Part shown: positions 37,620-48,507 of the stretch, piece by piece
How the letters are laid out: every line of letters begins with the position of its first letter
Numbering within the stretch: position 1 is the stretch's first letter
From: Nitrosopumilaceae archaeon
GTDB lineage: Archaea > Thermoproteota > Nitrososphaeria > Nitrososphaerales > Nitrosopumilaceae
Length of the DNA: 64,000 nt
Direction: 5' to 3'
NCBI GenBank assembly: GCA_965203465.1
Contig: CBDBCR010000003.1
Coordinates: 128,001-192,000 of the forward strand
Notes under the pieces: generated by a model
Seen by the model: only the letters and a program-made list of their open reading frames with translations
What the model was told of the DNA's origin: nothing
Database searches by the model: none
Position numbers and translations under genes: made by a program

Positions 37620-39077
37620 CTAGGGTACCACCAGCACGCCGACGCGCACGAGGTGCTGCAGGCCGGCGACGAACGTGGCGTCGTCTATTACATCGTCGGC
37701 CCAGTACCCGGCGTTGTCCCTCACGAACGGCGGGATGTCGCCGCCCTGCCCGGACTGCGCGGTCGGCGGTATCTGGATTACGCCCTGGCCCGCCAGGTAC
37801 TGTATAGCCGAGACGAACGTGGAATCGTCGATGGTGCCGTCCGACCACAGCCGGGCGTTGGTCTTTATCCACGAGGGCAGCTCGGGCGCCCCGCCGGCCG
37901 GCGGGGCCGCGCCTGGTTCGGGCTCCAGTCCCGAGGGCAGCACATCTATCGGAACCACCAGATAGTCGGTGGGCGTCTTTGCAAAGTCTGGTATCTGCGG
38001 CTTTGGCGCCAGGCCGTACACCCAGACCGCGTAGTTGTGCGTCCCGGGCCCCTCTTTTACCGGCATGAGCGGCTCGGCCAGGCCCGACGGCGAGTACAGG
38101 TATATCTGCTCCTCGTCCTGCGCGAGGCTGCGCAGCGGCTTCAGGTCGGGATCCACGACCAGCAGGTCGTACTGGACGTGGTTTAGGAACTCGGTCTCGT
38201 CGGTCTTTTTCTTGAACTTTATGAGCCAGTCCAGCTCGCAGCCGTCCTTGGGGTTCTCTGGCTTGTAGAGCACCTCCATGCCGTACGAAAAGTTCTTCGT
38301 GGTGGTCTTTAGCGAGACGAACGGTATGGTGTCCAGGTCAGGGCAGCCCAGCTGCCGCTCCAGCTCCGCGCTGGCCCTGACCGAGGCGAACGGATCGGAC
38401 ACTATCCCCCGGCCCATCTCGAGCAACTCGATCGCGTATTCCTGCGGGGCGTCCCCCTCTGCCACGTGCGTCCACGTGCTGGCCTTTACGGGGAACGGCA
38501 GGTCGGGCACCACCCAGATCTGGCTGTTTTTCCCGCCCGTGCGCCACCCCACCACGACCGAGTCGAACTCGCCTGCCGGCACCGAGACCTGCCCCGCGGC
38601 GGTGGGCCGCACCTGCTGGCCGCCGATGTTGGCTATCTTGCCCCACGAGGGGTCGCGGAACGGTTTGGGCCCGTCGTCGCCCCCCTCCGGCGAGCTGGTG
38701 AACGCGGCAAGCCAGGCCACCGACGACTTGAACGCGTCGCGGTACTGCGCGATGTTGTCCGTGCCGCCGCTCGGCTCGGCTGATATCTGGCCCAGCTCCA
38801 TCTCGCCCTTTAGGGTGCGCGGGCCGTCGTAGACGACCGTCTTTGCGAGCCACTTTTGCTCGGTGCCCACGGCGCGCTCGCCCTCTATCCAGATGTCCAT
38901 CCGGAACTCCCTGCACTCCTTGTAGTTTACGTGGCACATATTATACGAAAAGTAGTCGCCCACCTCCAGGCCGTTGCCCAGCCACCACGAACCGTCCACG
39001 TCCACTCCGCCGCCGACCTCCTGCGCGTACGCGGCCGGAATGGCCAGGGCGGCAAGTGCGAGCAGCGCGGTCTTCAA
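37620..39077 (-). CDS. Secreted thaumarchaeal surface protein with two C-terminal 'PSWIK.NA..W.DG.IDD..FV' repeats
   Basis: Signal peptide; LPSWIKTNARLWSDGTIDDSTFVSAIQYL and IPPFVRDNAGYWADDVIDDATFVAGLQHL. Confidence 0.8.
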   Translation of the reverse strand: MKTALLALAALAIPAAYAQEVGGGVDVDGSWWLGNGLEVGDYFSYNMCHVNYKECREFRMDIWIEGERAVGTEQKWLAKTVVYDGPRTLKGEMELGQISAEPSGGTDNIAQYRDAFKSSVAWLAAFTSSPEGGDDGPKPFRDPSWGKIANIGGQQVRPTAAGQVSVPAGEFDSVVVGWRTGGKNSQIWVVPDLPFPVKASTWTHVAEGDAPQEYAIELLEMGRGIVSDPFASVRASAELERQLGCPDLDTIPFVSLKTTTKNFSYGMEVLYKPENPKDGCELDWLIKFKKKTDETEFLNHVQYDLLVVDPDLKPLRSLAQDEEQIYLYSPSGLAEPLMPVKEGPGTHNYAVWVYGLAPKPQIPDFAKTPTDYLVVPIDVLPSGLEPEPGAAPPAGGAPELPSWIKTNARLWSDGTIDDSTFVSAIQYLAGQGVIQIPPTAQSGQGGDIPPFVRDNAGYWADDVIDDATFVAGLQHLVRVGVLVVP

Positions 39078-39349
39078 CGCCTAGGCGTGGGCAAAATTCC
39101 TAATTAAGTCTTGTTTCGGGCGCGGCGCTTTGGTCCGCCTGCGCCTGCACAGGCCGGCCTTGCAGGCAGGACGCCACCACGCGCAGGATCAGATGAGGTA
39201 GGCGGGAGCGACGGTGTCCGAAAGTCGGCGCCTGGCCAGTAGACACGGATCACGCCCCGTTGTTCGACGCGGGCAGGCATGCGCCTAACCTGAAGCCCGC
39301 GATGGTCAGTTTTGTGGCAAGTTGCTTTTAGGTTGCGGCCTTGTTCGAA

Positions 39350-39916
39350 TCATCGGTGCCGGCCTTTGTGTCCAGATCCGACTTGTTTCCTCGTCCGGGC
39401 CTTTCTCTTGTCCCCTACATAGCCGGCATCCCTTTTACCCAGTTTGTGTCCGTCCTCCGAAACAGAACACCTCATGTCGACGAGCCGGGTGTTACAGTCA
39501 TACAGTGCTATCTGGTGTTTTTTCTGGCCTATGCTTACTTTTGTCTTTACGAGTACGCTGTATTGCGCCCATCTGCGGCGTCCCTTGGCGACCAATCCAA
39601 TGATCAAACGGGGTTGCGGCCGGCCGAGTTTGCTTGCTACCTCCAGTGCTTTTTTCCCCCCGCCTTCGAACTGCTTCGTTATTTGATCTACGTCAAAGGA
39701 AAAACTCTTGATCTCGATCAGCGATGCGGTCAGCCGTTTTCGTGTATCAAAAACTATGCAGTCGCATACTGGCGTTTTCTGCCCCGCGAGGATTTCTCCC
39801 TTTAGTATTACGTATGCCGACAAGCCGCCAAAACCTACCTTGCATTTGTGTTCACAGCATTTTGGAATGACGGCGTTTGCGTGCATGGATTTAATGAGAC
39901 GCAGGCTATGATCCAT
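39350..39916 (-). CDS. Putative PD-(D/E)xK nuclease-like protein
   Basis: 'CDCIVF...LIEIKS...QITKQF' D...ExK..Q pattern; overlaps ATPase stop; lower GC. Confidence 0.55.
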   Translation of the reverse strand: MDHSLRLIKSMHANAVIPKCCEHKCKVGFGGLSAYVILKGEILAGQKTPVCDCIVFDTRKRLTASLIEIKSFSFDVDQITKQFEGGGKKALEVASKLGRPQPRLIIGLVAKGRRRWAQYSVLVKTKVSIGQKKHQIALYDCNTRLVDMRCSVSEDGHKLGKRDAGYVGDKRKARTRKQVGSGHKGRHR

Positions 39917-41357
39917 TGTTAGCACGATCCCGGATAGCTAAAGACTGGCGGTAGATATTTTGGGTTACCTTTACAAATTCTTCTACTGGTATTCCGTCGT
40001 CCGCTTCTATGTCTAGACGATCTATCTCATATCCCGACGGCGATGGAACGAACTCGTACGCCGCCACTTCTTTTGCCTCCAGATAGTCATCTCGCTCTAG
40101 TCCCGAGTCGTCCGGCCATCCATTTTTTCCAAGAACGCCGCTCGTGTCGGTTCGCTTGGATTTTGCAATGTTGCCAGCTTGTATCGTGTTGCTTATCTGT
40201 TCTACGATGAATGGGCTGTGCGTGGTCAGAATGATCTTGAGCCCGCGCCTAACCAATCGAACGAGATACTTGGCGAGTATGGCCTGGTTGTGCGGGTGGA
40301 GGTGCGCTTCGGGCTCTTCTATGATCAGCGTAGATTTTTCAGATATCGTGTGCTTTAGATGCAGTATAAACGGAGCCATTTCGGACACCATTGACGATGC
40401 TAGATGGACTGGTATTTCGCGTTGTTTGTATACGTACTTTATGCCGAATGCAGGACGTCCGTCCCCAATCTTGATCTCGCCCTGTAGTATCTCTTGTTCC
40501 AAGTTAGACGCAATGTCATAAAAACGGCCTTGCTTATTGGGCGTTTTTATGACACCGACTATGAAATCTGCGACTACGCCTGGAAGTTTTGGGATCTCGA
40601 TTTCTTCAAGTCCCCCGTATGGGGCATGCTCGACTATGCTTGCAGATATTGCTTCATGTCCTTGCAGTATGCCGGATCTTGCGGCGGGAAAGTAAAACAT
40701 CGTGCGCGGTTCGAAGTGTTTCCGAATGAGAGTAAACAAGACATGGTCTACCAATCGTCGATCGGTTTTCGAGCTGATTGTGACAATGGATGTAAGTTTA
40801 CGATCGGTTTTCGAGCTGATTGTGAGAGAGTTGTCGTTTGCGCCATGTCCAAGTTTTTTCTTCGGGCTTGTTAACCTAATGTCTGGCCCTTGAACAGGCG
40901 ATATTTTGCACGTAGACTTTTTGCTCGATATGCTTACATTCATAGTCATGTGGTTTGTCCGTATTTTGATGGTGCACCCTCTAGCATCGATCCTGATCAA
41001 CTGCGCGAGGTCGTCAGAAAAGGTACGCTTTACGCTACGCAGAAGTTTTGCTTCAAGATCTTCGATAAACGCAGCTTCTACTTTGCCTACATAGCCGCGT
41101 CCGAACGTGTTGCCATTCATAACCGATTTTCGGATAGGCGTATGCGACGTTTTCGAAGTCCAGCGCGGTCTCCATACGTTGCTGTCGCCAAGCATAGATC
41201 GAATCAGGAGAGATACGTACGACTTGCCCGAATTGTTGGATCCGATGAGGACAGTCATAGGCATGATCTCGATACTGCCGCGTCGTATGGGCCCAAAGTC
41301 CTTTACGTCGATCCTAGTTGTATCTGTATCAGGCTCCCCAGCAACTTTTCTGCGCAT
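39906..41357 (-). CDS. ABC-type ATPase (AAA_15/AAA_21, OLD/AbiEii-like)
   Basis: VKDFGPI, GSNNSGKS, PAARSG, ASSMVSE, IIEEPEAHLHP, LTTHSPF. Confidence 0.88.
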   Translation of the reverse strand: MRRKVAGEPDTDTTRIDVKDFGPIRRGSIEIMPMTVLIGSNNSGKSYVSLLIRSMLGDSNVWRPRWTSKTSHTPIRKSVMNGNTFGRGYVGKVEAAFIEDLEAKLLRSVKRTFSDDLAQLIRIDARGCTIKIRTNHMTMNVSISSKKSTCKISPVQGPDIRLTSPKKKLGHGANDNSLTISSKTDRKLTSIVTISSKTDRRLVDHVLFTLIRKHFEPRTMFYFPAARSGILQGHEAISASIVEHAPYGGLEEIEIPKLPGVVADFIVGVIKTPNKQGRFYDIASNLEQEILQGEIKIGDGRPAFGIKYVYKQREIPVHLASSMVSEMAPFILHLKHTISEKSTLIIEEPEAHLHPHNQAILAKYLVRLVRRGLKIILTTHSPFIVEQISNTIQAGNIAKSKRTDTSGVLGKNGWPDDSGLERDDYLEAKEVAAYEFVPSPSGYEIDRLDIEADDGIPVEEFVKVTQNIYRQSLAIRDRANNGS

Positions 41358-41714
41358 GGCCCCATGTCTGAAGCACGTCTTAAAAAAAGTATCTTTGCGT
41401 TTGTGGGTTTGGCCTCGACATGCCGCTAGGAGCGATTAGGTGGAGGCCCGTGCTACCAGTTCTGGCCCAACCTGCGCCGGATCGGCCGTCGCGTCTATGC
41501 CCCTGCCTCCCCGTGTCAGCGTGCACGCCACTGGCGTGTCGAACGTCTTTGTTTCCGAGCGCGGCAAGACCGATCGCCGCGGACGGCATGTCGAAGCTCG
41601 CCCCGGGCCGCGGAAAACCGGGCGGCAGGGCGCGGGCCGCCACCGGCGGAGCCGCCAAGATTCCGGCGGGGCTTTCAGCATAGGCAAATATAGAGGGCGC
41701 CGGGGCCGCCTTGC

Positions 41715-41882
41715 GTGTGCGACTGCTCCAAGGTGCACCTCTACGAGGTAGAGTACAAGCTCGAGGGCATGATAGTGGTGCCCACCCACAAGAACTGCGG
41801 CGCCAGCCTCAACGAGCCGCAGGCCCAAAAGCTCCAAAAAGATCTGGTGAAACTGTGGGGCTTCAAGCAGGAAGAAGAATAG
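41715..41882 (+). CDS. 55-aa small Cys-containing protein
   Basis: Not in ORF track; MCDCSKVHLYEVEYKLEGMIVVPTHKNCGASLNEPQAQKLQKDLVKLWGFKQEEE*; AATATA box about 25 nt upstream. Confidence 0.72.
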   Translation: MCDCSKVHLYEVEYKLEGMIVVPTHKNCGASLNEPQAQKLQKDLVKLWGFKQEEE

Positions 41883-41914
41883 GCTATAAATAAAAATCCG
41901 GCCCGCCTCCCCGC

Positions 41915-42574
41915 GTGATAGTGGACTTGCGCCTAGAAGGCAGGCACGTCGTAATCGTGGGCGGCGGCAGGGAGGGCGACCGCAAGGCGCGCGCCCTGCT
42001 CGGCGAGGGGTGCGAAATAACCGTGCTTTCAGAATCGTTCACGCCGGGCCTCCAGAGGCTCGCGGACCGGGGGCTCATATCTGCAAGGATCGGATCCGCG
42101 CGCGGCGGCCTGCCCGGCGGGCTCGACGCGTACCTGGTCATGGCGGCCACCGACGACCGCGAGCTCAACCGGAGCATAGTGGAGAGCGCCCGCGCGTCCG
42201 GCTGCGTGTGCTACGCGGCCGACGACCCAGAGGCCGGCGACTTTTCCCACCTTTCCTCCTTTACGCTAAAGGGCGGCGTGCGCGTGGCCGTATCGACCGG
42301 CGGGCAGAGCCCGGCCATGGCCATGAGGATGGGCGCGCGCGCCCGCGCCATGCTGGCGGGCCTCGTCTCCGACGAGGACGCGGGCCAGATAGCCCTGCAA
42401 AAGGAGGCGCGCGCGGCCGCGCGCCTGGCCATACCCGGCCAGGCCGGGAGGCGCAAGTTCCTGCACTCGGTAATAGACGACGAAACGGTTAAACGCCTGC
42501 TCAGGTCGGGCGACGGCGATGGGGCGCGCGCCCGCATGACCGAGATGCTGGAGGGGTACGATGGCCATACTTAA
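41915..42574 (+). CDS. Precorrin-2 dehydrogenase/sirohydrochlorin ferrochelatase (CysG N-terminal/SirC)
   Basis: IVGGGREGDRK, AATDDRELN, AVSTGGQSP. Confidence 0.9.
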   Translation: MIVDLRLEGRHVVIVGGGREGDRKARALLGEGCEITVLSESFTPGLQRLADRGLISARIGSARGGLPGGLDAYLVMAATDDRELNRSIVESARASGCVCYAADDPEAGDFSHLSSFTLKGGVRVAVSTGGQSPAMAMRMGARARAMLAGLVSDEDAGQIALQKEARAAARLAIPGQAGRRKFLHSVIDDETVKRLLRSGDGDGARARMTEMLEGYDGHT

Positions 42575-43784
42575 CACGCGGGTGACCTACAAAGATTCGC
42601 CCATACACGTGCTGGAGCGCTTTGCGTTCCGCGACATGGGCGAGGCCTACAGGGAGTTCCGCAGGCACCCCGAGATAGGCGAGTGCGTGATACTGCAGAC
42701 CTGCAACAGGGTAGAGCTGTACTCTACCGGCTCGGACCTTCCCCGCATAAAGAGGGCGTGGGCCTCGCTGACGGGCCTGCGCGAGGGCGACTTTGACGGC
42801 AACCTAGAGTGCTCCGAGGGCGACGGGGCGTGCAGGCACCTGCTGCGCGTGGCCTCGGGCCTCGATTCCATGGTGGTCGGCGAGGAGCAGGTGCTCGGCC
42901 AGGTGAGGGGGTCCATATCGGCGGCGCGCCGGGCCGGCTCTTCGGGCCAGACGCTCAACACCCTTTTCGAAAAGGCCGTCCACGCCGGCGCGCGCATACG
43001 CAGCGCCTCGGGGATCGGCTCGGGCGGCGTCTCGGTCGGCTCCATGGCCGTGCGGCTGGCCGACGAGAGCTCCGGCGGCCTGGAATCCAAGAGGATACTG
43101 GTGGTGGGGACCGGCGAGACGGCCTCGCTGGTGGCAAAGTCGCTGGCGCGGCGCGGCCTGAGCTTCGACGTCTCGAGCAGGACGGTGCGGCGCGCCGGCG
43201 CGTTCTGCCAGAGCCTGGGGGGCAGGCCCGTGCGCTTCGAGGACGCGCTGGAAAACCTGCCCTCCTACGGCGTGGCGTTCGTGGCCACCTCGGCGCCGTA
43301 CTCGCTGGTGACCCCCGAGAGGCTCCCGGGCGCCAAGATGTCCATACTGGACCTGTCCAACCCGCGCGCCGTCTCGGAGGAGGTCGCCTCGGTGCCCGGC
43401 GTCTCGCTGATGAACCTGGACCAGATAGCCGCCGTGGTGGAGCGCAACGTGAGGGGGCGCAGGGAAAAGGCCGGCGTGGCAGAGGAGCTGGTCGAGGAGG
43501 AGGCCGGCGCCCTCGAGGCGTCGATAAAGAGGCTGGGCGCCGAGCCGCTCGTCGAGCGCGTCTTCAAGGGTACCGAGGCGGTGCGCAGAAAAGAGCTGCA
43601 AAAGGCGCTAAAGATGCTAGGCCTGGACGAGCGCGGCGAGCGCATCGTGGACGAGCTGACCCGCGCGGTGGCAGAGGGGATACTGGCCCCGCCGATGAAC
43701 TCGGTCAGGCGCGCCTCCAAGGAGGGCAGGACCGACGTGCTCGACGCGGCCGACGGCCTGTTCAGGTACGACGGGCAAAGCTAG
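42561..43784 (+). CDS. hemA: Glutamyl-tRNA reductase
   Basis: QTCNRVE, SGLDSMVVGEEQVLGQV, GTGET, DLSNPR. Confidence 0.95.
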   Translation: MAILNTRVTYKDSPIHVLERFAFRDMGEAYREFRRHPEIGECVILQTCNRVELYSTGSDLPRIKRAWASLTGLREGDFDGNLECSEGDGACRHLLRVASGLDSMVVGEEQVLGQVRGSISAARRAGSSGQTLNTLFEKAVHAGARIRSASGIGSGGVSVGSMAVRLADESSGGLESKRILVVGTGETASLVAKSLARRGLSFDVSSRTVRRAGAFCQSLGGRPVRFEDALENLPSYGVAFVATSAPYSLVTPERLPGAKMSILDLSNPRAVSEEVASVPGVSLMNLDQIAAVVERNVRGRREKAGVAEELVEEEAGALEASIKRLGAEPLVERVFKGTEAVRRKELQKALKMLGLDERGERIVDELTRAVAEGILAPPMNSVRRASKEGRTDVLDAADGLFRYDGQS

Positions 43785-43818
43785 GCGGGCGCGATCGCGG
43801 GCGCTGGGCCGCCTCCGG

Positions 43819-44238
43819 TCAGCCCTTGTCGTCCCACGCGTCCTGCCAGTCGGTCGACCACGGCTCGAGCACTAACTTGCGCGTGCGTCCCGACAGATGT
43901 AAATCCCACAAATTTATGACGTTCCGACCTATCAGCATCCTTGCCTCCTCTTCGAATCCTGCCGCGAGTATTCTTTCAAACACCGCGCCGTTTATGCTCA
44001 GGCGGATCACGTACGCTGGGGCGTGTATGGAACCACCGATGCCTGCCAGCGGGACGCTTTTGACACTCTTCAGATTCAGAGCGTCGACGACGGATGGTGC
44101 TATCATGCTTATGGACGCGCCCGTGTCTATGATGCCCCTGCACTTTACCGTTTTTTCAGAGTGGGCCGACACGCCTACATCCAGAACCGGGGCCGCAGTC
44201 CTGCCGTCAAACCGTTCGTAGTCGGCTACAATTTTCAT
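43819..44238 (-). CDS. Retropepsin-like (clan AA) aspartic protease
   Basis: IIDTGASISMI active site, GIGG flap, LIGRNVI motif. Confidence 0.88.
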   Translation of the reverse strand: MKIVADYERFDGRTAAPVLDVGVSAHSEKTVKCRGIIDTGASISMIAPSVVDALNLKSVKSVPLAGIGGSIHAPAYVIRLSINGAVFERILAAGFEEEARMLIGRNVINLWDLHLSGRTRKLVLEPWSTDWQDAWDDKG

Positions 44239-44810
44239 TCCTGACGCAGAACCTTCGGAGTGACAGTTTCGACATATTCGACTCCGGACGACCTGCCCAC
44301 GTACATGTACACGTTTCCGAACTTGTCGTACATGCGAGATATGAGATCCATCTGGGAACGATCGCTGCCTTGGAGCTTTCCGTGAACGAACGCGACAAAC
44401 TTGCCTTTGAATTCTGGGTTGTCCGAGTTGCTGGACACAAAGTCCCGGTACGCGTTCTCGTTGATCGCGTTTTTGGCGCGCTCTGATTCATACCTAGATT
44501 TTGTGGCATTCGGGGATGTCCGATACGGCTCAAATTCGAGATTTTCCCAAGCGGCGACGGCAAAGGCACTGAATTCGTAACGGAGAGGGGCGTATGACAT
44601 ATACTGCCGAGCACGGAAAGTTTCGTCCACGCTCATCTGGCGTGTGAAGAGCGAGGCAAAATTTTCAATGTCCACCAGAATAGGCCCGCATGCATCACAG
44701 GATTTACCCATCTGTTCAGACATGAGCGTCCAGACTTCGAACGCTTCCATCTTGGAACGTTGGGCGCGATCTGTGTGCGGTTCAGAATGCAGGACGCATG
44801 TGCTAATCAA
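44235..44810 (-). CDS. Protein with C-terminal DUF5678-like domain
   Basis: 'NENAY...FKGKFVAFVHGKLQGSDRSQMDLISRMYDKFGNVYMYVGR'; ATGA overlap with protease. Confidence 0.7.
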   Translation of the reverse strand: MISTCVLHSEPHTDRAQRSKMEAFEVWTLMSEQMGKSCDACGPILVDIENFASLFTRQMSVDETFRARQYMSYAPLRYEFSAFAVAAWENLEFEPYRTSPNATKSRYESERAKNAINENAYRDFVSSNSDNPEFKGKFVAFVHGKLQGSDRSQMDLISRMYDKFGNVYMYVGRSSGVEYVETVTPKVLRQE

Positions 44811-45420
44811 TCATATCGTCCCCCATCTTTTCTTTTATGAACCTAATCTCCATGTCGAGTGAGTCTAGTTGGTTACTAACCTCTTTGCTCAGCCTTCGCG
44901 CCTGAGTTGGATCTAGCTGGATTGATATCGGACGATCATTGGGTGTGTTAGGTTCGCGCAGCACGCCGTTGATGACGAGTTTGGGGATCATTTTTGTGAT
45001 CCGGCCGTCATTCGATATTGGTCTCAGTTCTGTGTAGATGGTAAGTTGGTGAAGGTGAGGATGTCCTGCAACCTCTAGATCGGCCATAGTCTGCATCTGA
45101 TTCACTTTTTGGGCGTCTACTCGTTCATGTAGGTTCTTCAGCACCTGCTTGAGTATGTTCTTCTTGTCTTCTGTCAATGGAGCGACATCAATCATCCGCG
45201 TCATTGTTTGGGGACGTGCGTGGTTAATAACGAAATTGTAAAACACGTTGTTGATACATGACACCTCGGTTTCGCTCAGTTTGACTCCCACGATCTCATC
45301 GACCTTCGTCCTGTCTATCCTGCGGACGATGATCGACTCGTCTATCGTGTCTGCTAGCGCACGAATTTGGCCTTCCGGGAGCTTTGAGAGCGTCGCGATG
45401 TCGGTACTTGGATCTGTCAA
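44803..45420 (-). CDS. COMMD-like protein (helical N-domain + COMM-like C-domain)
   Basis: 205 aa from TTG at 45420, BRE/TATA about 25 nt upstream; C-terminal HPHLHQLTIYTELRP...IPKLVINGVL...ISIQLDPTQARRLSKEVSNQLDSL fits the three-strand + helix COMM pattern. Confidence 0.55.
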   Translation of the reverse strand: MTDPSTDIATLSKLPEGQIRALADTIDESIIVRRIDRTKVDEIVGVKLSETEVSCINNVFYNFVINHARPQTMTRMIDVAPLTEDKKNILKQVLKNLHERVDAQKVNQMQTMADLEVAGHPHLHQLTIYTELRPISNDGRITKMIPKLVINGVLREPNTPNDRPISIQLDPTQARRLSKEVSNQLDSLDMEIRFIKEKMGDDMID

Positions 45421-46330
45421 CTGCCTAGATGCGCGGGCACCGCTATAATTTCTTATCGGCACCTGCTTAAATACGACTCGTCTAGGCCTACAGTATCCAC
45501 TCACCTCCTCCCCCACCCATCTGACCCGGGGCACGACACGCACCCGTTCTCATTACGGTGAGTATTCGTGGTTTGATGCCTTCTGGCCCACGATTGGGCG
45601 CCTTCTGGTTCACAACCTCGGCGTGCGCCCGTCCGGGCCACCCCAACCACAGTTTGTCAACCCACCAGTTGTCAAGACGAAGTGAACAAAAAGTCAACAA
45701 AAATTGAGTGGTGTCTTTAGATCCGAGTTTTTGGGCCGCGGCCATAGCATCGAAAGCCATGCTACTACAGAGAACTACTCGCGGCTCATATCATGATCTT
45801 CGAACGAGACAAGGAGATCGTCGTACAGGGTGGGCGCATGGCTGTAAATGACAAGACCGCAAAGCTTGAGGCCAGTCTGATCCTGTACGAGGGCCCCAAC
45901 ACCCCGTCGTCGACAGAGTTGTAGTTCAACTACAAGCGCAATAAGTACATCAAAAAGCACGGAGTATCTAGTGCACTAGGTGTTCTCTAGGCTGCTGACG
46001 TTCATTGTGACGTGCGGCATGAACCATATTTTCCGTGCATGGCGGTAGTCGAGATGCTGCGCGACCACAGATAGAGCATGTTCAACCCGGACCTCCGATG
46101 CCGTACGACTGGTCTGTCTTCGATTCGCCAATCTCTGGGCTGACAAGGCCACCCGAGACGGAGGCTGGGCGGGCACAGGTTCCAGCGGCGGCGTCTGCCT
46201 GACCGCACCTAACGAGCGGCTGGATGCGCTACGGGCAGTGTCAACCTGCCTCAGGCGTCGGGCAGAGAGGATGGCGATACGCGCGGATCGGGGCGTAGGC
46301 ATAATAAAGACTCGGCGCCGCGCCCCGCCC

Positions 46331-47596
46331 GTGTCGCGCTCGGCCCGGATGTACGCAGCCGCAAGGAGGTCCATTCCGTCCGGCGTCAACAGCCCCGTAA
46401 GGTACTACGGCCCGCACCCGTTCTTCGCGTCCAGGGCGCGCGGCGGCGCCGTCTGGGACGAGGACGGGCGCAGGTACACCGACCTGTGCTGCGGGTACGG
46501 CGCGGTAATGCTGGGCCACTCCCACCCGGCGGTCAACTCGGCCGTCTCTGCACAGCTGCGGCGCGGGCAGATCTACGGCGTGCCCACCGAAAAGGAGACA
46601 AAGCTGGCAGAGGCCATAAGGGGCTTTTTCCCATCCATGAAAAAGACCCGGCTGGTCAACACCGGCGGCGAGGCCACCATGGCGGCGGTCCGGCTGGCGC
46701 GCGGGCACACCGGCAGGCCAAAGGTGGTAAAGTTCGAGGGCGGCTACCACGGGGCCCACGACTCCATGCTGGTCAGGGCCGGCTCCGCGCACGCGGGGAT
46801 AGCCGTCTCTGCCGGCGTGCCCGGCCCGGTCGCCAGAAACACCATGGTCGCGAAATACAACGACCTGCACGGGACCGCCGAGCTGCTCGAGGGGCGCGAC
46901 GATATAGCCGGCGTCATAGTCGAGCCGGTGATGGCAAACGCCGGCCTGATACCGCCGGCCAGGGGGTTTTTGCGCGGCCTGCGCCGCGCGACCCGCAAGG
47001 CCGGCGCGGTGCTCATATTCGACGAGGTGGTCACCGGCTTCCGCGTCTCGCCGGGCGGCGCGCAAGAGCTGTACGGCGTGCGGCCCGACCTGACCACGCT
47101 GGGCAAGGCGCTGGGCAACGGCTTTCCGATAGCGGCGGTCGGCGGCAGTTCCCGCATAATGGAGAGGCTCGCGCCGGGCGGGGACGTGTACCAGGCCAGC
47201 ACGTTCGCCGGAAGCCCCGTCTCGGTCTCGGCGGCTGCCGCCGCGCTCGCCCACATGCGCCGGAGGGGCATGCATGCCAAGCTAGAGAGGGCCTGCGCGG
47301 CGCTCGCCGAGACCGCCTCGGACGCGGCAAAGTCGGCCGGCATAGAGCACCGCGTCAACAGGGCCGCCTCGATGTTCCAGATATTCTTCACCGGAAAACG
47401 CGTCACCGACTACGCCTCGGCGGCCTCGTCGGACCGCGCCGCGTTCGACAGGCTCTTCCGCGGGCTGCTGGCCGGCGGCGCGTTCGCGCCCCCCTCGCAG
47501 TTCGAGACCGCGTTCCTCTCGGCTGCCCACACCGAGCGCGACCTGGGGCGCGCCGGGCTCGCCTACTCCAGGGCCATGCGGGCGGTGCGCCGTTGA
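46331..47596 (+). CDS. hemL: Glutamate-1-semialdehyde 2,1-aminomutase
   Basis: PSGVNSPVR, KFEGGYHG, FDEVVTGFR, TTLGKALGNG, PPSQFE. Confidence 0.95.
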   Translation: MSRSARMYAAARRSIPSGVNSPVRYYGPHPFFASRARGGAVWDEDGRRYTDLCCGYGAVMLGHSHPAVNSAVSAQLRRGQIYGVPTEKETKLAEAIRGFFPSMKKTRLVNTGGEATMAAVRLARGHTGRPKVVKFEGGYHGAHDSMLVRAGSAHAGIAVSAGVPGPVARNTMVAKYNDLHGTAELLEGRDDIAGVIVEPVMANAGLIPPARGFLRGLRRATRKAGAVLIFDEVVTGFRVSPGGAQELYGVRPDLTTLGKALGNGFPIAAVGGSSRIMERLAPGGDVYQASTFAGSPVSVSAAAAALAHMRRRGMHAKLERACAALAETASDAAKSAGIEHRVNRAASMFQIFFTGKRVTDYASAASSDRAAFDRLFRGLLAGGAFAPPSQFETAFLSAAHTERDLGRAGLAYSRAMRAVRR

Positions 47597-48507
47597 TCAG
47601 GGTGGCCACGCGCGCAAGCCCGCTCTCGCTTGCCCAGACGCAGGGCGTACTGGACATGCTGGGGCGCAGTTTCGAGATCGTGCGCGTGACCACGCGCGGC
47701 GACACCGACGCGCGCCCGCTCTTCGCCATGGACCAAAAGGGGATATTCGAGCGCGAGGTGGACGCGGCCGTGGCCTCGGGCAGGGCCGACTTTGCCGTCC
47801 ACAGCCTAAAGGACGTGCCCACCGAGGTCCCCGACGGCCTGGTGCTGGCCTCGGTCCCCAGGCGAGAGGATCCGCGCGACGTGCTCGTGACGGCCGGCGG
47901 CGACAGCATAGATTCGGTGAGGAGCGGCGCGACGGTGGGCACCAGCAGCCTGCGGCGCGCCTCGCAGATCCGGGCCGCGCGGCCCGACCTGCGCCCCGTC
48001 CCGGTGCGCGGCAACGTCGGCACCCGCGCGGCGCGCGTGTCCGGCGGCGAGCTGGACGCGGTGGTGCTCGCGCGCGCCGGCATTTTGCGCCTCGGCCTCG
48101 AGGCCAGGTACGCCATACTGCCCGAGGGGCGGTTCCTGCCCTCGCCCGGGCAGGGCGCCCTAGCGCTGGTCTGCCGCTCGGGCGACGAAGAGACCAGGGG
48201 CATCCTTGCGGGAATCGAGGATCCCGATTCGCGCGCAGAGGCCGAGGCCGAGCGCGCCCTCTCCGCAGAGCTGGAATCGGGATGCAGGTTCCCGGTCGGC
48301 GCGCTGGCGCGCGCGGACGGGGACAGAATCTCGGTCGCGGCCTCCGCGTTCGGGACGGGCGGGGAGCCCGTCTCGGCCCGCAGGTCGGGGCCAAAGTCCG
48401 AGGCGGCCGAGGTGGGGCGCGGGGCGGCCCGGGACATGCTGGAGGGCGGCGCCGGCAGGCTTGCGTTAAATTGGAGGGCCGAGGTGGAAGAGTGGAATGC
48501 CAGGTAA
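47593..48507 (+). CDS. hemC: Porphobilinogen deaminase
   Basis: ATRASPLSLAQT, AVHSLKDVP, VGTSSLRR, RGNVGTR, PSPGQGAL, GCRFPVG. Confidence 0.95.
   Translation: MIRVATRASPLSLAQTQGVLDMLGRSFEIVRVTTRGDTDARPLFAMDQKGIFEREVDAAVASGRADFAVHSLKDVPTEVPDGLVLASVPRREDPRDVLVTAGGDSIDSVRSGATVGTSSLRRASQIRAARPDLRPVPVRGNVGTRAARVSGGELDAVVLARAGILRLGLEARYAILPEGRFLPSPGQGALALVCRSGDEETRGILAGIEDPDSRAEAEAERALSAELESGCRFPVGALARADGDRISVAASAFGTGGEPVSARRSGPKSEAAEVGRGAARDMLEGGAGRLALNWRAEVEEWNAR

Follow-up and report, generated by a model that had tools for sequence, protein, structure and literature searches.

A gene for a predicted COMMD-like protein heads a candidate mobile cassette ending in a retropepsin gene in a Nitrosopumilaceae archaeon

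What does a protein with a predicted COMMD fold do at the head of a small operon that ends in a protease gene? This question is raised by a 64,000-nucleotide stretch of DNA (hereafter the window) from a Nitrosopumilaceae archaeon (assembly GCA_965203465.1, contig CBDBCR010000003.1, positions 128,001 to 192,000 of the forward strand; the genome is referred to below as G000), in which three minus-strand open reading frames (ORFs) lie between hemA and hemL. The original prediction, made from the sequence alone, had proposed that they encode a COMMD-like scaffold, a DUF5678-like protein and a retropepsin. Our best reading of the sequence comparisons is that the three ORFs constitute one horizontally acquired, mobile operon. 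The operon would represent a three-component toxin-antitoxin (TA)-like or abortive-defence-like module, in which a COMMD-like oligomer acts through an adaptor on a swappable effector, a functional proposal whose chances we consider evenly balanced.

The three genes and their predicted products

Gene 1 (44803-45420, minus strand, TTG start, 205 amino acids) encodes the COMMD-like protein, gene 2 (44235-44810, minus strand, TTG start, 191 amino acids) a candidate adaptor or neutraliser, and gene 3 (43819-44238, minus strand, ATG start, 139 amino acids) a single-domain retropepsin-like aspartic protease. Genes 1 and 2 overlap by 8 nucleotides (44803-44810) and genes 2 and 3 by the 4 nucleotides ATGA (44235-44238). 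The 8-nucleotide overlap hinges on the TTG start of gene 2, which has an in-frame ATG some 60 nucleotides further downstream; both overlaps are repeated in the relatives G003, G718 and G737. The N-terminus of gene 1 as read from its TTG (MTDPSTD...) lines up with the starts of its homologues. This TTG lies 23 nucleotides downstream of the end of a TATA-like element, AAGAAATTATA (45444-45454, minus strand), which was read from the letters and presumably serves as a promoter; such a spacing would suit an archaeal transcript that is leaderless or nearly so. Judging from sequence comparison, the three ORFs are real genes rather than chance ORFs, because each has homologues and other genomes keep the same order of three genes.

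A HMMER search with gene 1 returned 44 representative homologues (E <= 0.001), of which 36 reach E <= 1e-10, and an AlphaFold2 model was built from an alignment of 32 homologues. The model has a predicted local distance difference test (pLDDT) score of 91.3 and a predicted template modelling score of 0.70, and consists of eight helices, three long strands and a 29-residue helix. These elements are arranged as a helical HN domain (residues ~1-117) followed by a COMM region, mostly at pLDDT >90, with strands at 122-137, 140-155 and 162-169 and a helix at 171-199. A Foldseek search of the PDB gave 18 matches at E <= 0.001, and COMMD or COMMD-like chains were the only ones among the matches listed down to E 0.06. 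The top match was 9q6a_B, from a bacterial COMMD-like octamer (E 3.5e-7, template modelling score normalised by the query (TMq) 0.59, 14% identity). Full-length alignments to 9q6a and 9q6c extended over 213-221 columns with TMq 0.54-0.59, and human COMMD chains (8f2r, 8p0w, 8esd) matched at E ~1e-6. The isolated COMM domains 6bp6_A, 8f2r_F, 8p0w_F and 8esd_S gave target-normalised scores (TMt) of 0.77-0.83, and the HN domain of COMMD9 (4oe9_A) matched with probability 0.94, TMt 0.51 and E 0.14; the modest full-length and HN scores arise because the domain orientation differs. A search of the viral structure collection BFVD yielded 0 matches at E <= 0.001.

Sequence-based methods returned a different picture for the same protein. 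Pfam and NCBIfam scans gave no significant family match for gene 1. The Pfam COMM_domain model (PF07258) left it unmatched and found 0 matches at E <= 10 in a six-frame search of the genome. Among 32 members of the gene 1 family, COMM_domain scored sub-threshold in 3 (best E 0.0062) and COMM_HN weakly, below its cut-off, in 4 (best E 0.017). A profile search against the PDB placed COMMD3 at E 0.26, with unrelated coiled coils as its top matches. It is thus the predicted fold, not a sequence model, that marks gene 1 as COMMD-like: a confident structure model and its PDB matches are at hand, yet no family model matches significantly. The fold proposed for gene 1 in the original prediction was thus upheld by the structure-prediction check. 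Since the solved bacterial COMMD-like proteins are octamers and decamers, gene 1 would by analogy be expected to form a homo-oligomeric ring. The protein ends in a tail, KxGDDxID or more fully KFGDDI(I/V)D (window ~44806-44829), with an invariant G200, which is found family-wide irrespective of the gene downstream. We know of no eukaryotic COMMD protein that carries the KFGDDI(I/V)D tail.

Gene 2 combines a variable, probably disordered N-terminal half of ~100 amino acids with a conserved C-terminal domain of ~85 amino acids (NPEFKGKFVAFVHG...MYDKFGNVxMYVGR). It lies directly upstream of the retropepsin gene with the 4-nucleotide overlap, the same placement as in 3 of the 5 true DUF5678 loci of this genome, and on sequence criteria it appears to resemble DUF5678 in pattern and position only. 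No Pfam match was obtained for gene 2 and an ESM Atlas search produced no usable match, while a PDB profile search with the C-terminal domain gave nothing below E 0.17. Its AlphaFold2 model is poor (pLDDT 45.5) and unfit for fold comparison.

The third gene could be assigned by sequence. Gene 3 matches Pfam Asp_protease_2 at E 7.2e-8 (33.5 bits against a cut-off of 24.3), in agreement with its predicted identity as a retropepsin, and falls below the cut-off of the narrower NCBIfam model TIGR03698 (16.6 against 57.35 bits). It keeps the catalytic motifs D38-T-G-A-S and G104-R105-N, and the aligned cassette proteases, 8 of 8, show no variation at D38, T39, G40, G104 and R105. By these sequence criteria gene 3 is a catalytically intact single-domain retropepsin. 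Retropepsins (clan AA, family A2) require dimerisation for activity. PADLOC reports a weak match of gene 3 to PDC-M08B (E 0.0029), and the cassette retropepsins of G003, G750 and G718 match the same component of a candidate defence system at E 3e-6 to 6e-5.

Relatives, partner exchange and mobility

Homologues of gene 1 were surveyed in two samples, 401 genomes across the phylum and 401 genomes of the family. The phylum-wide sample contained them in 3 genomes, all of one family, and the family sample in 12 genomes of 4 of its 27 genera, with 13 loci in all. In nine of these, gene 1 is directly followed by a gene 2-like domain and then a retropepsin, and the predicted co-occurrence of gene 1 with an adaptor and protease pair is thereby borne out. 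All three genes are intact at four of these nine (G000, G003, G750 and G718), the cassettes of the latter three at ~30% protein identity. In G708 and G735 gene 1 is fused to the gene 2 C-terminal domain, with a truncated protease in G735; in G737 a DDE_3 insertion sequence interrupts gene 1; and the copies of G754 and G005 are decayed. The protease did not hold as the defining partner, given that three of the 13 loci have a HEPN pair in its place and one has other genes. At the former (G466, G480 and a second locus of G737) an unrelated middle gene of 220-243 amino acids comes after gene 1, and then a third gene of 125-155 amino acids. A profile of this third gene finds 61 proteins, four with Pfam HEPN and one named UPF0332, and ESM Atlas places 8 of its 30 matches in HEPN clusters. 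PADLOC matches the third gene weakly to PDC-M05B (E 1.5e-4), and a PDB profile search with its alignment gave 0 matches. The remaining locus, in G019, has two other partner ORFs. Pfam, NCBIfam and PADLOC found nothing for the HEPN-cassette middle genes or for the G019 partner genes.

Fusion of genes 1 and 2 is a recurrent feature of the family. Besides G708 and G735, the metagenome proteins P0010, P0014, P0013, P0009 and P0017 join an N-terminal part of gene 1 to the gene 2 C-terminal domain, and the junction varies, falling after gene 1 residue ~105, 139 or 185. In a maximum-likelihood tree built from 42 gene 1 sequences, the fusions form two separate, well-supported clades, which suggests that fusion arose independently at least two times. 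The cassette types interleave in the same tree and 3 changes are needed to explain them, a count in which G019 is grouped with the HEPN-type cassettes.

A search with the gene 2 C-terminal domain identified 16 of the 401 family genomes, 8 of which hold gene 1. Among the others, G707 carries three genes in a cassette; hhalign likens the first to COMM only weakly (E 0.0025, probability 12%), and it is no more than a lead. G025 encodes a gene 2-like protein with a long N-terminal extension, followed by a retropepsin, with no gene 1; hhalign detected no HN-like part in this protein (E 0.26). G668 retains a solo fragment of the domain, G507 has no recognisable protease, and 4 weak matches are left over, of which the 2 inspected look unrelated. 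A scan of genome contigs with a motif-derived DNA pattern gave 12 loci, one of them a true homologue (a split gene in a Cenarchaeum sp. metagenome-assembled genome), and the corresponding scans gave true homologues at 0 of 8 metagenome loci and 0 of 3 viral loci.

The genome under study contains further relatives of each component. Two HN-only paralogues of gene 1, L011 (G000:C1:564292-564573) and L012 (G000:C1:19834-20097), match the gene 1 profile at E 2.8e-9 and E 1.9e-5, respectively. Both are extended slightly at the C-terminus, and a small gene of 106-136 amino acids comes next in each case; these two small genes are 39% identical and have no match in Pfam, NCBIfam or PADLOC. A PIN-like identity for these partners, suggested by a C-terminal motif seen by eye, was unsupported by any tool and was set aside. 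A six-frame search with the DUF5678 model (PF18929) found five places (L013, L014, L015, L016 and L017), gene 2 not among them. Of the five, three score above the cut-off and three have a retropepsin-like gene directly after them; frameshifts split two of these retropepsin genes. The cassette retropepsin and a DUF5678-module retropepsin are distantly alike (BLASTP E 0.32).

The surroundings of the cassettes are consistent with mobility. Those of G003, G750 and G718 sit in local dips of G+C content (GC), and transposases occur at or near 5 of the relative loci, flanking or interrupting the cassette in G750, at both G737 loci and in G019. The intact cassette of G750 (L078, 5282-9910) lies between two same-strand DDE_Tnp_1 genes, one of them split, in an arrangement that resembles a composite transposon. 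In G737, insertion sequence (IS) elements interrupt one locus, and rve and IS110 genes flank the other, which has an IS240-type transposase and a DNA methylase gene nearby. An rve transposase adjoins the cassette of G019; that of G003 has an IS110 transposase ~6 kb away and a HicA toxin gene at a distance of ~2.8 kb. Broken copies were found in G005, in G754, at one G737 locus and as a second copy in the present genome. This last one (L075, G000:C1:423587-423826) consists of a gene 2 remnant, a 67-amino-acid ORF with one TGA within the match, and then frameshifted retropepsin fragments; a gene 1 remnant was not detected there.

The cassette of the window itself lies in a low-GC island extending from the hemA stop to the hemL start (43785-46237), which comprises the three genes and a ~0.8-kb upstream spacer. 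GC is 0.47-0.59 over 43800-46199, against 0.64-0.73 in the flanking genes. Every sequence feature described in the original prediction, namely the three overlapping minus-strand ORFs, the TATA-like element, the low GC and the position between hemA and hemL, is present. The spacer (45421-46237, GC 0.52-0.56), between the cassette promoter and hemL, contains no recognised gene or RNA family; its ORFs at 45488-45760 and 45775-45960 have no match in Pfam, NCBIfam or PADLOC, and an Rfam scan of window positions 38000-48000 matched no family. Flanking direct repeats and a tRNA were looked for and none was found. The hemA flank is identified by TIGR01035 (E 4.6e-91). The hemL flank matches TIGR00713 (E 2.3e-152, 507.5 bits), slightly below the equivalog cut-off of 527, and exceeds the cut-off of the subfamily model NF000818. 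The haem cluster also includes a gene for a sirohaem synthase N-domain upstream and hemC and cobA downstream. Haem-gene linkage of gene 1-3 homologues is known from this lineage only.

The stretch is present in 14 sequencing runs of 6 studies, labelled, where labels are shown, as sponge or marine metagenomes; none is listed as an RNA run. Contigs of two further studies (X6 and X7) run from the end of hemA into gene 3, and one of them also runs from the spacer into hemL. An empty insertion site was not found; the only joints in contigs of other runs that skip the island have sides of 21-23 letters and are not reliable. Three genus mates have hemA followed by hemB, not hemL, and no cassette, and synteny is therefore not comparable for an empty-site search. 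Over 44307-45539 the cassette occurs in two forms side by side within each of the runs X3 and X10, with 0 and ~12-14% differences, and one variant carries a paired insertion (45366) and deletion (45375) in gene 1 that keep the reading frame.

A second low-GC island lies 2.5 kb away on the minus strand (39350-41357, GC 0.46-0.51). It encodes a 483-amino-acid AAA_15/AAA_21 ATPase with PADLOC matches to PD-T4-4_A (E 2.8e-36) and AriA (E 1.2e-26), and an overlapping 191-amino-acid ORF (39350-39925) for which no family was matched. This island looks like a two-gene defence candidate.

A proposed mechanism and competing explanations

The cassette displays traits of TA modules: its small genes overlap and run in one direction, its distribution is patchy, mobile elements lie around it, and copies are multiple and prone to decay. 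A TA-like or defence-like function is the best reading because a COMMD-like first gene, an effector-specific middle gene and a small enzyme follow each other in that order, and because the genes are coupled and in some relatives fused, the downstream pair is exchanged, mobile elements lie nearby and copies often decay. The gene order would then correspond to accessory, neutraliser or adaptor, and effector. The gene 3 retropepsin would be the effector, and gene 2 would be its cognate partner, keeping the protease in check or delivering it, with the conserved C-terminal domain taking the place that DUF5678 has in ordinary DUF5678-retropepsin pairs. Gene 2 in turn would be tethered, stabilised or sensed by the COMMD-like oligomer, and a disturbance of the ring-adaptor complex would free the protease. 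We infer from this arrangement that the proteins bind, that the protease is toxic and which way control runs. What the natural fusions lack is the end of the gene 1 helix, including the tail KFGDDIID, and the N-terminal half of gene 2 (residues 1-100); because these segments would be dispensable once the two proteins are covalently joined, they are candidates for the interface, as far as sequence comparison can indicate. The HN-only fusions, together with the HN-only paralogues heading two-gene sets, suggest that the HN domain may be the working part and the ring an optional multimeriser.

Several results weigh against this proposal. Binding between any two of the three proteins has no computed support; a complex prediction of two copies of gene 1 with gene 2, run without controls, gave interface scores (ipSAE) of 0.00 and 0.01, which are uninformative either way. 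The DUF5678 model (cut-off 23.2 bits) gave no match to gene 2 at E <= 1 with hmmscan, and an hhalign comparison with four DUF5678 proteins of this genome was colinear over 47 columns with E 0.16 and probability 0.4, which is not significant. On these alignments gene 2 is not demonstrable as a DUF5678 member, and the DUF5678-like identity given to it in the original prediction reduces to a likeness in position and pattern. Genes 1 and 2 are without a match among known TA and defence models, PADLOC giving 0 families for either. Nor do retropepsins belong to the established classes of toxin, and PDC-M08 is a candidate system only, whose A component was unmatched. The fusions of G708, G735 and P0017 are without most or all of the COMM domain and keep HN and the gene 2 C-terminal domain; the ring is therefore not always needed. 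Contigs of other samples carry the cassette at the same site with 2-14% divergence, which argues that it is stably inherited in this lineage and not visibly mobile.

The same fold and linkage evidence would also fit a ring that activates instead of restraining, the version put forward in the original prediction. Such a ring would concentrate adaptor-bound retropepsin monomers and nucleate their dimerisation, for example on infection, and the need of retropepsins for dimerisation agrees with this, as does the report that COMM domains assemble rings from dimers (Liu et al., Nat Commun 2026, PMC13392464, main text). The fusions that drop most or all of COMM while keeping HN and the gene 2 C-terminal domain are difficult to reconcile with an activation platform, however, and the gene 1 family also serves HEPN partners, for which no protease-style nucleation of dimers is needed. 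We regard an activating ring as unlikely.

The HN-only paralogues, each with its C-terminal extension and small next gene (E 2.8e-9 and 1.9e-5 to the gene 1 profile), could also be taken to suggest that gene 1 is a regulatory third component, DNA-binding or autorepressing as omega is in omega-epsilon-zeta, and in effect the split-off N-terminal domain of an antitoxin that gene 2 completes. The order regulator, antitoxin, toxin would fit, the fusions would recreate a two-domain 'antitoxin', and the long gene 2-like protein of G025, preceding a retropepsin with no gene 1, would agree with this. The hhalign comparison found no HN-like part in the G025 protein, however, and the family-model scans detected no DNA-binding motif in gene 1. 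COMMD and HN domains are not, to our knowledge, DNA binders. An omega-like regulator is accordingly a quite improbable role for gene 1.

The broken copies in many relatives raise the idea of a decaying passenger with no present function. The three ORFs are intact here with their catalytic residues kept, and G003, G750 and G718 still carry all three genes intact at ~30% protein identity, making mere decay very improbable. A role in host physiology, for example in maturing or turning over a protein of the haem pathway or another housekeeping protein, would explain the position between hemA and hemL and its retention in the X6 and X7 contigs of other studies, but is scarcely credible for a cassette of foreign composition that is present in only 12 of 401 family genomes and 3 of 401 phylum-wide, lies elsewhere in relatives (beside a histone-like gene in G003, between transposases in G750) and is missing from the three genus mates with hemA followed by hemB.

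The TA-like or defence-like module thus stands as our preferred reading. A broader version, which we offer as a rather doubtful extension, is that the prokaryotic COMMD/HN fold is a reusable oligomeric third component of TA or defence cassettes, docking effector-specific adaptors (gene 2 or the middle gene of the HEPN cassettes) and gating small effectors, and that the binding of CCDC22 and CCDC93 in Commander descended from it.

Comparison with known systems

The closest arrangement for genes 2 and 3 is the DUF5678 (PF18929) and retropepsin module, in which a small gene likewise ends 4 nucleotides inside the retropepsin start and with whose DUF5678 protein the C-terminal domain of gene 2 aligns colinearly. 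The cassette differs in that gene 2 fails the Pfam model, aligns to DUF5678 proteins only at the non-significant hhalign value given above, has an extra N-terminal half of ~100 amino acids and is preceded by a COMMD-like gene. HEPN (PF05168/UPF0332) modules are approached by the three relatives whose gene 1 cassette has a HEPN-family gene as its last member. PDC-M05 and PDC-M08 are experimentally untried candidate defence systems. The cassettes resemble them in matching their B components (PDC-M05B at E 1.5e-4, PDC-M08B at E 3e-6 to 3e-3), but the matches are weak and the A components unmatched; a literature search for 'PDC-M08' found nothing.

Three-component TA systems include omega-epsilon-zeta and the toxin-antitoxin-chaperone systems of mycobacteria. 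The cassette is similar to these in its accessory, antitoxin-like and effector order, its coupling, patchiness, proximity to mobile elements and decay. In contrast, no families are shared, the accessory component is COMMD-like, the effector is an aspartic protease, and its toxicity and neutralisation are presumed. With the eukaryotic COMMD1-10 proteins of Commander/CCC (8f2r, 8p0w, 8esd), gene 1 has the HN and COMM architecture in common; in Commander the COMMD ring is a hub that binds the extended partners CCDC22 and CCDC93. Gene 1 differs from these proteins in its 11-14% identity, in having no Pfam COMM_domain match, in being one gene rather than ten paralogues, in lacking Commander partners and in its family-specific tail.

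No description of a COMMD-like protein coupled to a DUF5678-like and retropepsin pair or to a HEPN pair was found in the literature; nothing was found that joins retropepsin-like proteins, archaea and toxin-antitoxin systems, and 'DUF5678' occurred only in unrelated work. Prokaryotic COMMD-like proteins, 361 of them, have themselves been published (Liu et al., Nat Commun 2026, PMC13392464), with 9q6a and 9q6c as a Flavobacteriaceae octamer, and the fold is therefore not new in itself. According to the main text of that paper, their function is unknown, and they were likewise missed by sequence methods. The AlphaFold screens it reports, on gene clusters of Myxococcota, Chlamydia and Halobacteria, gave no predicted complex with a COMMD-like protein, and the context lead it names is type VI secretion-like genes in Myxococcota. 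Its main text, as distinct from a supplementary list of 111 archaeal proteins outside our scope, contains neither protease, retropepsin, DUF5678, toxin, operon or defence, nor Nitroso, Thaumarch or Thermoproteota. The claim that a prokaryotic COMMD-like scaffold coupled to a protease was undescribed consequently fails for the fold and stands, within this literature, for the composition of the cassette.

The proteins of Liu et al. and gene 1 are alike in their two-domain fold, their length of ~200 amino acids, their single gene and their escape from Pfam detection, whereas gene 1 is translationally coupled to a protease adaptor and in relatives is fused with it. This cassette context is new and is the first concrete functional lead for prokaryotic COMMD-like proteins. 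The locus and its relatives supply COMMD-like proteins with a conserved, coupled and sometimes fused partner, together with a swappable enzymatic effector (aspartic protease or HEPN) and a mobile, TA-like life style. The role of prokaryotic COMMD rings thereby becomes a question open to ordinary experiments, and pairs of a retropepsin and an adaptor are flagged as an unstudied TA-like or defence-like class.

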